Below are positions 41,297 through 48,972 of a stretch of DNA of 64,000 bases, piece by piece (the stretch's first letter is position 1; each line of letters opens with the position of its first letter). The notes under the pieces were generated by a model. The model was given only the letters and a program-made list of their open reading frames with translations, made no database searches and was not told the origin of the DNA. The DNA is from a virus. The stretch lies in IMG/VR virus record IMGVR_UViG_3300021373_003070. One strand, 5' to 3'. Both the position numbers and the translations under genes were made by a program.

Positions 41297-41666
41297 TTAC
41301 CTTAATTCTATCAACACCACCAAGAAGAATCTTATGCGAGGTTCTAACGATGATGATGTGGCTGAGAAAGACTATCTGCCATTCATGATCAATCGAGGAC
41401 TGTCTTACTTTCAGGATACCATCGCTCTTGCCAATGAGATGAATCGCTATCACGACATCGACAAAAAAATGCAATACGAGTTTTATATAAATATTGTCAG
41501 ACCACGGAAGAGATTTTCTAAGTGGTTCAAAAAAGAAGAAGATAGTGACATCGAGGCGGTAAAAGAATATTATGGATATAATGACCAGCGAGCTTCTCAA
41601 GCACTTTCCATTCTCTCAAAAGAACAATTACAAATAATAAAAAGCCGACTAGAAAAAGGTGGTTAG
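41280..41666 (+). CDS. gp62: Clamp loader small subunit
   Basis: PFDYLNSIN, Y.PFMINRGLS, R.RKRFSKW.K, VKEYYGY. Confidence 0.93.
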   Translation: MSNPFDYLNSINTTKKNLMRGSNDDDVAEKDYLPFMINRGLSYFQDTIALANEMNRYHDIDKKMQYEFYINIVRPRKRFSKWFKKEEDSDIEAVKEYYGYNDQRASQALSILSKEQLQIIKSRLEKGG

Positions 41667-42143: not shown

Positions 42144-42166
42144 GGTACTTCAAATTGGAGATATCT

Positions 42167-44874: not shown

Positions 44875-44903
44875 TTTACAAATGAATGCATACGATGTAG
44901 AAT
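44875..44903 (+). promoter_or_regulatory. Early promoter (G)TTTACA-N17-TAGAAT
   Basis: Recurrent motif; implies the next gene starts at 44927. Confidence 0.65.
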
Positions 44904-44926: not shown

Positions 44927-45517
44927 ATGCAAGAAAAAGTAATTCTAACCGACTGTGATGGCGTACTTCTTGATTGGGAGTATGCCTTCGGTCGTTGGAT
45001 GGCCCGCCACGGATATGAAGTAAAAGTAGAGGGTGTCTATAAAATGGACGTCAAGTACGGTCTCCCTCGACAAGCGTCGAAGGCGTTAGTACGAATGTTT
45101 AATGAAAGTGCATCAATCAGGAAGATACCACCACTGAGAGATGCAATTAAGTATGTGCGAAAGTTACATGAAGAACATGGCTATGTATTTCATGCCATTA
45201 CTTCTCAAACAGATGACGAGTATGCACAACACCTTCGAATCAAAAATTTATGTGAACTGTTCGGACCATCTACGTTCGAAAAGTATGTCATCTTAGACTG
45301 CGGTGCAGATAAGGATGAAGCGTTAGCAGAATACAAGAACACAAATTGTTTTTGGATCGAAGATAAAGTAGAGAATGCATTGGTCGGTGAGACGATGGGT
45401 TTAAGATCAATCCTCATGGCTCATGGCTTCAACGAAAATCAAGAAGAATGGGCAGACTCTGAAATCATCAGAGTACAGGATTGGAGAGAGTTGTATGACG
45501 TCATCACCGGATACTAA
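44927..45517 (+). CDS. HAD-family 5'(3')-nucleotidase-like phosphatase
   Basis: LTDCDGVLLDW, ITS, WIEDK; GAGG RBS. Confidence 0.8.
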   Translation: MQEKVILTDCDGVLLDWEYAFGRWMARHGYEVKVEGVYKMDVKYGLPRQASKALVRMFNESASIRKIPPLRDAIKYVRKLHEEHGYVFHAITSQTDDEYAQHLRIKNLCELFGPSTFEKYVILDCGADKDEALAEYKNTNCFWIEDKVENALVGETMGLRSILMAHGFNENQEEWADSEIIRVQDWRELYDVITGY

Positions 45518-45662
45518 GAAATGTGTCCAGTGTGGTAAAGAATTTAGGGTTGTATTAGTTTGGGCTACGTATTGTAGCGGCGATTGCGAGAGAAAACATT
45601 ATGACAAAATGGCAGGAGCACACAAAAGAAGTGCAGATAAGCGAGTTCTTCGCTCAAGATGA
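45495..45662 (+). CDS. Small Zn-finger hypothetical protein
   Basis: CVQCGKEF...YCSGDC. Confidence 0.45.
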   Translation: MTSSPDTKKCVQCGKEFRVVLVWATYCSGDCERKHYDKMAGAHKRSADKRVLRSR

Positions 45663-45843
45663 TTCACGTAAAGCTGTATTGAGTCAAGATAAATACCATT
45701 ATATATGCCGATTGTATGACATAACACATTCCGGTATATTGAGAGAGTATGACACTGTATTGATTGCTGATAGAACACAACAATATGCAGAAGATTGCTG
45801 TGAGAATTTTGTAAATTATGTTGGTAGTTTCAATATTCGCTGA
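45601..45843 (+). CDS. Hypothetical protein
   Basis: Ends in YAEDCCENFV, a motif familiar from T4-like phage small proteins. Confidence 0.55.
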   Translation: MTKWQEHTKEVQISEFFAQDDSRKAVLSQDKYHYICRLYDITHSGILREYDTVLIADRTQQYAEDCCENFVNYVGSFNIR

Positions 45844-46170
45844 AGCTTGTAATAGGAAGTGCGGACGCGGGTTCGACTCCCGCCGCCTCCACCAAATGAA
45901 CACTGTTGATCTAAAGAGTAGTCATTTTAGTCTACGATCAAGATCCCGGCCGCCGGGTATGTGGGTGGAAATCCGACACAGTGTTCATCTGATGGGGGCG
46001 TAATGGATTCGACGGGCGACTGAAAGCAAGTGGAGAATCGTCAATGATGCTGACGTTAAACAGGGTCAAACAAAATAGTTGCAAACGATGACAACTACTA
46101 CGGTGATTACGCACTAGCTGCCTGATCCCGCGAGGCTCGCTCCCTCCTCGTCGCCCAACGGGAGCTTCGA
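45844..46170 (+). ncRNA. ssrA: Circularly permuted (two-piece) tmRNA; tag ANDDNYYGDYALAA
   Basis: T-arm, acceptor 3' strand and CCA at 45867-45894 lie upstream of the 5' strand GGGGGCG...GGATTCGAC (45994 on); 7-bp acceptor with G3.U70; tag ORF 46081-46125 after AAAATAGTT; outer ends approximate. Confidence 0.9.
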
Positions 46171-46184
46171 TTTAGGACTATAGT

Positions 46185-46484
46185 ATGACACCAAAAAGTA
46201 AAGGCGATCCAATGCAACGAGCATTAGGACGATTCAAACCAGATCGAAACTGGTATCCAGACGACTTCGATTGGTATCTCAAATGGGTTGCCTCGATTCT
46301 CGTTCTTATATCTCTAGCCATGCGTTCAGCTGGCATCGATTATCGTATGTACGATCTTGGCTTTGGTTTAGCTGGCATTGTTCTATGGACATGGGTATCT
46401 GTCATATGGAGAGATCGAGCTCTTATCATGTTGAATTCAATCTCGGGCTTTATGTTAGCAGTTACTATTCTTAGGGAAATGTAA
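46185..46484 (+). CDS. Small three-TM membrane protein
   Basis: DWYLKW.AS...W.DRALIMLN. Confidence 0.65.
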   Translation: MTPKSKGDPMQRALGRFKPDRNWYPDDFDWYLKWVASILVLISLAMRSAGIDYRMYDLGFGLAGIVLWTWVSVIWRDRALIMLNSISGFMLAVTILREM

Positions 46485-47252: not shown

Positions 47253-47279
47253 AGCATCTGTCAAATGGAGATATATACT

Positions 47280-48432: not shown

Positions 48433-48508
48433 GCCGCTATAGCACAATTGATAGTGCATTCGCCTTGTAAGCGAAAGGTTCTTGGTTTGAGTCCAAGTAG
48501 CGGCACCA
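48433..48508 (+). tRNA. tRNA-Thr(TGT)
   Basis: Full cloverleaf, anticodon loop CTTGTAA, encoded CCA; A19/T56 variant. Confidence 0.9.
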
Positions 48509-48566: not shown

Positions 48567-48905
48567 GTGCTTATGAAAACATGTAAACATTGTGGTATAG
48601 ATCTATCTACTGTCAAACATGAAGGTAGACAGTGTAAAACTTGTCGTAATGGATTGGCAAGATATGGTTTAAATCGCAAACAACAACAGGAGTTGTTAGA
48701 ATCACAGAATCATAAATGTGGTATTTGTGAACAAGAAGTAGAATTATTCGTGAATAATAATCAGGCAGGAGTAATTGATCATTGTCACGAAACAGGAAAC
48801 GTTAGAGGGATATTATGTGGACCATGCAATACAGTTTTAGGACGAATAGATATTGTTGGCCAACAAAAATTCTTATCTAACGTCGAAAAATATATTCCCG
48901 AGTAG
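48567..48905 (+). mobile_element. Endonuclease VII-type HNH protein, probable free-standing homing endonuclease
   Basis: CGIC...IDHCHETG.VRGILCGPCN; N-terminal CxxC pairs; late promoter at 48548-48555; stop codon lies inside tRNA-Asn. Confidence 0.75.
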
Positions 48906-48972
48906 CTCAGTTGGTAGTAGCAATTGACTGTTAATCAATGGGTCGTAGGTTCGAGTCCTACCTCGGGAGCCA
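48896..48972 (+). tRNA. tRNA-Asn(GTT)
   Basis: TCCCGAG/CTCGGGA acceptor, anticodon loop CTGTTAA, TTCGAGT T-loop, CCA. Confidence 0.92.

Follow-up and report, generated by a model that had tools for sequence, protein, structure and literature searches.

A permuted tmRNA gene in a T4-like phage genome

The DNA analyzed here is a stretch of 64,000 nucleotides from the IMG/VR virus record IMGVR_UViG_3300021373_003070, hereafter the window. It is part of the genome of an uncultured T4-like myophage, has a G+C content of 40%, and carries every large open reading frame (ORF) on the plus strand. Its genes include those for a tail sheath, a portal, a gp23-type major head protein, a helicase, an SbcC-like nuclease, and a gp43-type polymerase. 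The closest capsid proteins, at 60–64% amino-acid identity, were those of Stenotrophomonas phage DLP6, the Sinorhizobium phiM12 group, Melnitz, Mosig, and cyanomyophages. Between positions 45835 and 46165 lies a gene that ARAGORN called as a permuted tmRNA with the tag ANDDNYYGDYALAA. The general permuted tmRNA model of Rfam (RF04321, cut-off 47 bits), which is built from the alpha, beta, and cyano permuted lineages, matched positions 45835-46125 over its full length (model positions 1-213) with 108.1 bits and an E value of 4e-20. The initial annotation, which had read a phage-encoded circularly permuted tmRNA with the same tag from the letters, was thus borne out by both programs.

Direct reading and the permuted flag of ARAGORN both placed the 3′ tRNA-like half before the 5′ half within one gene (Table 1). 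The 7-bp acceptor stem with its G3·U70 pair (45996·45888), the T arm, and the encoded CCA all lay where they had been claimed to lie. The alanine identity of the tRNA-like domain is shown, as far as sequence goes, by G3·U70, A73, and the encoded CCA. The tag frame, likewise found by direct reading and by ARAGORN at the claimed position, begins with an alanine resume codon in place of a start codon and closes with ALAA followed by TGA. The H-type pseudoknot that had been proposed downstream of the tag proved real, with loops of 3, 1, and 8 nt. To the features of the initial annotation, we add a second knot, of the pk1 type, on the upstream side of the tag (46039-46068). As for the spacer between the two halves, it folds as a long closing stem with internal hairpins, and the fold of spacer plus acceptor stem reached −50.4 kcal/mol (z −5.3).

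One dimension had to be revised. The initial annotation had described the acceptor piece as very short, about 50 nt, because it counted from the TGA at 45841-45843. Conservation and pairing between the two pieces start at ~45835, that is, upstream of this stop codon, so the RNA overlaps the end of the ORF. Taking the conservation limits at ~45835 and ~46165, the mature pieces would measure ~60 nt (acceptor) and ~172 nt (coding). An acceptor piece of ~60 nt is what relatives and the wider phage family have as well, and the gene is therefore not minimised, as had been supposed.

Table 1. Features of the tmRNA gene and its surroundings (positions in the window)
Feature	Position	Strand	Basis or detail
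80-codon ORF	45601..45843	+	3′ end runs into the acceptor piece; TGA 45841-45843
Acceptor piece (3′ tRNA-like half, first in gene)	45835..45894	+	RF04321 alignment; conservation onset ~45835
Acceptor-piece strands pairing with coding piece	45835-45838, 45846-45849, 45858-45860	+	RF04321 alignment
T arm	45867-45883	+	stem 45867-45871 / 45879-45883, loop TTCGACT
Acceptor 3′ strand	45884-45890	+	followed by A73 (45891) and encoded CCA (45892-45894)
Intervening spacer, 99 nt	45895..45993	+	between CCA and G1
Coding piece	45994..46165	+	3′ end inferred from where conservation stops
Acceptor 5′ strand GGGGGCG	45994-46000	+	7-bp stem with 45884-45890
Coding-piece strands pairing with acceptor piece	46019-46021, 46027-46030, 46035-46038	+	RF04321 alignment
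pk1-type pseudoknot, upstream of resume codon	46039..46068	+	S1 46039-46042 / 46052-46055; S2 46045-46048 / 46065-46068
Tag reading frame	46081..46125	+	resume codon GCA, peptide ANDDNYYGDYALAA, stop TGA
Post-tag H-type pseudoknot	46130..46165	+	S1 46130-46135 / 46146-46151; S2 46139-46144 / 46160-46165
DUF6552 protein gene, 99 aa, downstream	46185..46484	+	Pfam PF20189, E 2.9e-15
tRNA-Thr(TGT)	48433-48508	+	ARAGORN and Rfam
tRNA-Asn(GTT)	48896-48972	+	ARAGORN and Rfam

The gene sits at the edge of the phage tRNA region, as it does in DLP6 and Mendera. The 80-codon ORF that runs into the acceptor piece had no PHROG or Pfam match and no tblastn match in any subfamily locus (the subfamily is described below), and it is probably not a conserved gene. 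Simple scans of the plus strand between 45300 and 46600 found neither a sigma-70-like site nor a terminator-like site; the nearest TATAAATA sites on this strand are at 41486 and 48548. A search for a glutamine riboswitch between 45500 and 46500 gave no match at E up to 10.

Immediately 5′ of the gene, an ORF of 79 codons (45423-45662) gave a weak match to an HNH endonuclease family (phrog_1271, E 3.5e-5) that covers profile positions 199-247 of 361, and it may be the remnant of a homing endonuclease. In one relative (L001), this segment of ~320 nt is missing, and the counterpart of the ORF at 44882 is followed at once by the tmRNA gene.

Conservation and covariation across a phage subfamily

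Pattern scans recovered the same kind of gene on 16 IMG/VR contigs, to which was added one 538-base contig from a bacterial metagenome-assembled genome (MAG). Together they comprise 11 distinct sequences, the window and the MAG contig counted in. All share the same arrangement, which rules out mis-assembly, a concern that the initial annotation had raised. The tags in this subfamily read ANDD[NS]YYGDYALAA, ANDDNYYGDFALAA, or ANDDYYQDYALAA, and that of the MAG contig is identical to the tag of the window.

The MAG contig itself is phage-like although its bin is assigned to Wenzhouxiangellaceae. This sequence (JALQZL010000292.1, L155 / L166; 538 bases, low coverage) holds a phage-type permuted tmRNA with AT-rich flanks, and it was probably mis-binned from a phage.

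Within the subfamily, the parts of the mature RNA are 78–98% identical. Spacers, in contrast, measure 20, 55, 83, 99, or 150 nt and are essentially unalignable. A freely varying spacer between conserved flanks is as expected for a segment that is discarded during maturation. In the tag frame, the shorter tag of L001 and L002 set aside, only two residues vary, each by a conservative replacement (N/S, Y/F); five further changes are synonymous or affect the stop codon. The neighboring proteins also keep their positions around the tmRNA gene. Upstream, the window ORFs at 42155, 43050, and 44882 have homologues with 41–69% amino-acid identity; downstream, a 2OG-Fe(II) oxygenase (28–36% identical) and the ORF at 47265 (60–73%) are conserved.

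The longest spacer, of 150 nt, occurs in L201 (633-1026, minus strand) and in the identical L208. It contains the Shine-Dalgarno-like motif AAAGGAG and, downstream of it, an ORF of 55 codons (MRIQMKGGDEY...) that extends into the coding piece.

One specified fold was evaluated on the alignment of the 11 distinct sequences. With this fold, 95% of the cells were paired, versus 41–59% when the partners were slid, and none of 500 shuffles attained the observed values. Six pairs were altered on both sides: the T stem and the post-tag pseudoknot contain two each, and two inter-piece helices contain one each. G3·U70 was invariant in all 11 sequences. In the post-tag pseudoknot, both stems are kept in the relatives: S1 is 100% paired, alternating between G-C/G·U and A-U/G·U, and it is S2 that contains the two pairs with changes on both sides. 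The pk1-type pseudoknot offers more modest support. Its S1 is invariant, and its S2, read by eye, occurs in two states: the window shares UGAU/GUCA with L001 and L003, and the remaining eight sequences have UGAAC/GUUCA. The two states differ by one two-sided pair change (U·G to A-U) plus one further pair and represent a single evolutionary event. As read from this alignment, strong purifying selection with compensatory base changes is shown.

The tag peptide and a possible host

The tag of the window, ANDDNYYGDYALAA, resembles that of the one-piece tmRNA of Pseudoxanthomonas, ANDDNYGSDFALAA. From these two we designed the pattern ANDDNYxxD[FY]AxAA and searched it, back-translated, across single genomes of 185,579 species. 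It gave 39 matches, 37 of which were one-piece tmRNAs of Xanthomonas, Pseudoxanthomonas, and Stenotrophomonas; every one of the 37 Xanthomonadaceae loci recovered was a standard one-piece gene. The remaining two were the phage-like contig of the Wenzhouxiangellaceae MAG described above and a 360-base contig filed under Solirhodobacter olei, which holds a partial gene with a Xanthomonas-type tag, ANDDNYGSDFAIAA.

The initial annotation had called the tag "gamma-type." This description holds in so far as the pattern is found, for 37 of 39 matches, in the one-piece genes of Xanthomonadaceae. It does not hold as a distinguishing mark, given that tags throughout the family of permuted phage tmRNAs start with ANDD and that the Rfam beta consensus also opens with A-N-D. 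Tags of Stenotrophomonas phages end in IAA, as does that of their host, whereas those of Xanthomonas phages end in ARYA. The Xanthomonadaceae host group has a high G+C content, as opposed to 40% for the phage. We considered a firm host assignment from the tag and rejected it in view of this G+C content, of the ARYA ends, and of the fact that tags are short and constrained. Matching phage tags to host tags is thus a lead only.

Subtype of the tmRNA and origin of the permutation

The Rfam gathering cut-offs are 84 bits for the beta-type model (RF01850) and 50 bits for the alpha-type model (RF01849). The window gene aligned to the beta model over its full length with an E value of 8.9e-18, but at 60.8 bits it remained below the cut-off. 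The same was true of its subfamily relatives, which scored 66, 76.3, and 82.6 bits, all under 84, with E values down to 2e-24. On the alpha model, the window reached 53.6 bits with an alignment spanning just positions 40-268 of 355, and none of six subfamily relatives attained the alpha cut-off. By comparison, the wider family of phage tmRNAs with ANDD tags, DLP6 included, scored 93–136 bits on the beta model, above its cut-off of 84, while Melnitz and Mosig scored 106.7 and 67.6 bits, respectively, on the alpha model. Two contigs matched the cyano model. A close match to the alpha or beta type, which the initial annotation had pointed to as a sign of simple capture, was therefore found in part: the beta alignment is full-length, yet the scores stay near or below the cut-offs.

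Individual features did not settle the subtype either. The T loop of the window is canonical (TTCGACT), unlike the alpha consensus, and the region after G7 is beta-like or canonical. The GC-rich hairpin that ends the RNA after the post-tag pseudoknot in most of the wider phage family is a gap in the window's RF01850 alignment and is absent from the subfamily. In relatives of the L166 type, S1 and the loop of the post-tag pseudoknot are nearly those of the beta consensus. However, the alpha-type Melnitz and Mosig have an equivalent knot, with a loop that matches the beta-passing phage family, which means that this pseudoknot does not discriminate between subtypes. A maximum-likelihood tree was built from the acceptor and coding pieces (198 columns) of phage sequences, without bacterial references and with a midpoint root for drawing only. 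The subfamily formed a group (86/95) and fell on the side of Melnitz and Mosig with weak support (91/93) and long branches. We had considered a firm label of "divergent beta-type" and dropped it in view of the equivalent knot of Melnitz and Mosig and of this position on the alpha-phage side of the tree. Outside the tRNA-like domain, the similarity to alpha-type and beta-type phage tmRNAs was weak (z up to about 5).

Bacterial sources were also considered. Among 151 sampled Gammaproteobacteria, none gave an RF01850 match over the cut-off, and a beta-type phage gene used as a DNA query found no match among 400 sampled Gammaproteobacteria. A recent derivation from a one-piece Xanthomonadaceae tmRNA was rejected, as BLAST against three genomes returned only a 35-nt match within the tRNA-like domain.

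Collectively, these data indicate that the subfamily is a distinct phage branch of the known two-piece kind, with which it has its overall architecture in common, and not a newly invented or minimised permutation. Common descent with the other phage two-piece genes is likely from the sequence comparisons, although the subtype scores lie near or below the cut-offs.

We leave a small chance that the subfamily is instead a separate, phage-only lineage of two-piece tmRNAs beyond the alpha, beta, and cyano types of Rfam. It would then represent either a fourth permutation event or a deep branch linking alpha and beta, with a tag perhaps shaped to copy the one-piece tag of the host. Were phage tags indeed copies of host tags, they would be usable for host prediction.

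The initial annotation had favored a further possibility, an independent permutation. In this scenario, a one-piece tmRNA of the gammaproteobacterial type would have been permuted in the phage lineage, unrelated to the alpha, beta, and cyano lineages. The absence of a clean subtype pass (beta 60.8–82.6 versus 84 bits; alpha 53.6 versus 50 bits in the window only), the weak similarity to alpha- and beta-type phage tmRNAs beyond the tRNA-like domain, and a tag pattern otherwise confined to one-piece tmRNAs of Xanthomonadaceae would all agree with it. Yet the beta-model alignments are full-length, with E values from 9e-18 to 2e-24, and the gene matches other phage two-piece tmRNAs in the order of its halves, in pk1, and in the post-tag pseudoknot. 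Moreover, the closest phages by capsid, DLP6, Melnitz, and Mosig, all have permuted genes, and the 35-nt match mentioned above is all that links the gene to the three Xanthomonadaceae genomes. An independent permutation of the window's gene is thus unlikely.

Proposed function

We propose that the window carries a working phage-encoded two-piece tmRNA gene that is vertically inherited in a subfamily of uncultured T4-like myophages. Judged from sequence, this joint reading has a probability of about 0.8 in our estimate. For the RNA, we infer cleavage into two pieces, charging, and tagging, and the following course of events can be envisaged. The gene would be transcribed within a long phage transcript, a view that we take because simple scans gave no promoter or terminator of its own. 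The spacer would fold back and let the acceptor stem close. Cleavage 5′ of G45994 would fall to host RNase P and trimming back to the CCA ending at 45894 to host 3′ processing, the spacer presumably being discarded during this maturation, and the ~60-nt and ~172-nt pieces would stay base-paired. Once charged by host AlaRS, the RNA would reach stalled ribosomes with the help of host SmpB and EF-Tu. These ribosomes would be freed, and their nascent chains would gain the tag ANDDNYYGDYALAA for host proteases. The use of host factors is probable since SmpB (PF01668) was absent from the related phage genomes searched, namely two relatives (91% and 89% complete), DLP6, and Melnitz. The likely benefit for the phage would be to keep ribosomes free and to recycle amino acids while the infection yields many broken mRNAs.

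A possibility compatible with this main explanation, suggested by the initial annotation, is that the gene serves as a spare part against host defence, replacing host tmRNA that anti-phage nucleases have cut or depleted. The gene adjoins phage tRNA genes, and these are often interpreted as substitutes for the translation RNAs of the host. However, a literature search gave no nuclease known to target tmRNA, and we saw no defence or counter-defence gene next to the tmRNA gene; we regard this role as improbable.

A role as a decoy appears less probable still. Here, the RNA would tie up SmpB, AlaRS, or ribosomes of the host and so shut down host trans-translation without any tagging. There is a precedent in the tmRNA-like gene of mycobacteriophage DS6A, which lacks a coding sequence for a tag and inhibits the endogenous tmRNA in E. 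coli (PMC11915505), and the lack of an SmpB gene in the searched relatives would fit such a role. In the subfamily, by contrast, the tag frame is kept, its changes being mainly synonymous, and so are the context of the resume codon, pk1, and the ALAA at the C terminus of the tag. Such conservation would be unexpected were coding dispensable, which makes a decoy very unlikely.

Finally, it is hardly credible that the locus is a dead remnant or a product of faulty assembly, such as a piece of host ssrA captured with an attachment site. The 3′ tRNA-like half by itself does resemble the ends of enterobacterial ssrA genes, which serve prophages as attachment sites. However, neither half is damaged, nor are the tag and two pseudoknots; compensatory changes accompany the conservation of the gene on 16 IMG/VR contigs and one other; and the gene content of the phage is that of a T4-like, lytic virus.

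Implications for annotation and for the two-piece format

Taken alone, the gene matters little: two-piece tmRNAs of phages are in the literature, GenBank annotates several of them, and that of the window is detected by ARAGORN and Rfam alike. Its practical value lies in annotation, as such genes are easily covered by spurious ORFs or left blank. The initial annotation had warned that ORF callers can hide the gene, and this was seen in two GenBank records. In that of BUDD (L214, ON758385.1), a "hypothetical protein" CDS lies over the acceptor piece, and in that of DLP6 (L122, KU682439.2, 102838-103059), the permuted tmRNA is unannotated. Both records could be corrected. Because the subfamily lies between the subtype models of Rfam, pipelines based on subtypes may mislabel or miss its members.

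More generally, phages of Stenotrophomonas and Xanthomonas have two-piece genes and their host family has one-piece genes, which shows that the two-piece format follows the lineage of the phage rather than the host. This raises the question of why phages favor a two-piece tmRNA.

Comparison with known two-piece tmRNAs

A two-piece tmRNA in a phage was described by Buchholz et al. (2022) for Melnitz (PMC9004378). In the same study, ARAGORN classed 53 of 133 unique tmRNAs from 18,146 phage genomes as two-piece, and aquatic phages contributed 50 of these; the Stenotrophomonas phages DLP6, Mendera, Moby, and IME-SM1 appear as "Permuted" in its Table S1 (PMC9004378). We confirmed permuted genes in DLP6, Melnitz, Mosig, Mendera, Marzo, and Xanthomonas phages BUDD and X1, and a broader scan of IMG/VR found 31 permuted genes among 116 loci. 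GenBank annotates a tmRNA in Marzo, Bhz51, Yut2, and Yut3, and phage forms were absent from the supplement of the tmRNA database paper. The full tmRNA database comprises 96,539 bacterial sequences, of which 11,946 are permuted (PMC11915505). The phage two-piece tmRNA was thus already known, and the window gene adds a member. With DLP6, BUDD, and others permuted and their host family one-piece, the pairing of a permuted phage gene with a one-piece host was on record as well.

Melnitz (OM43 host, Methylophilales) and Mosig (Pelagibacter host) are aquatic T4-like myophages whose capsids are 60–62% identical to that of the window. They share with it the permuted gene order and an equivalent post-tag pseudoknot, and the Melnitz tag ends in DYALAA, as do those of the subfamily. 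They differ by a good match to the alpha model and by non-canonical T loops, whereas the window has TTCGACT and scores higher on the beta model. In Melnitz, a glutamine riboswitch lies immediately 3′ of the tmRNA (L123:1886-1934, 52.8 bits), as published; the window lacks it.

DLP6, whose capsid is the closest to that of the window (64%), belongs with Mendera, Marzo, BUDD, X1, and a large IMG/VR family bearing tags such as ANDDVYEMALAA and ANDDSFTPMALAA. Genes of this type resemble that of the window in being permuted, in their ANDD tags, in pk1 and the post-tag pseudoknot, and in adjoining tRNA genes. Their acceptor piece measures ~62–64 nt, as compared with ~60 nt in the window. Unlike the window gene, they pass the beta model (93–136 bits) and most have the GC-rich terminal hairpin; outside the tRNA-like domain, the two are barely alignable.

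The wider phage family showed further variations. In four genes (L013, L033, L055, and L079), the spacer between CCA and G1 is merely 4–5 nt, so that the precursor would be an almost closed tRNA-like hairpin. In three cyano-type phage tmRNAs (L066, L068, and L056), the terminal CCA is not encoded: the acceptor strand ends in ...TCCAC, followed by 4–5 nt and then GGGG, whereas the window and the beta-like family encode CCA. One viral contig (L088:49-403) gave a sub-threshold match to bacterial RNase P RNA (61.1 bits; cut-off 100), ~1.8 kb upstream of a permuted tmRNA with an unusually long tag of 26 residues.

Lastly, the bacterial two-piece tmRNAs (RF01849 alpha, RF01850 beta, RF01851 cyano) share with the window gene an acceptor half that comes first in one precursor, alanine identity, and a tag ending in AA. 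That of Caulobacter is functional according to Keiler et al. 2000, as this work is cited in PMC9004378. What sets the window gene apart from them is its location in a phage genome, its score below the beta cut-off, and its partial alignment to the alpha model.
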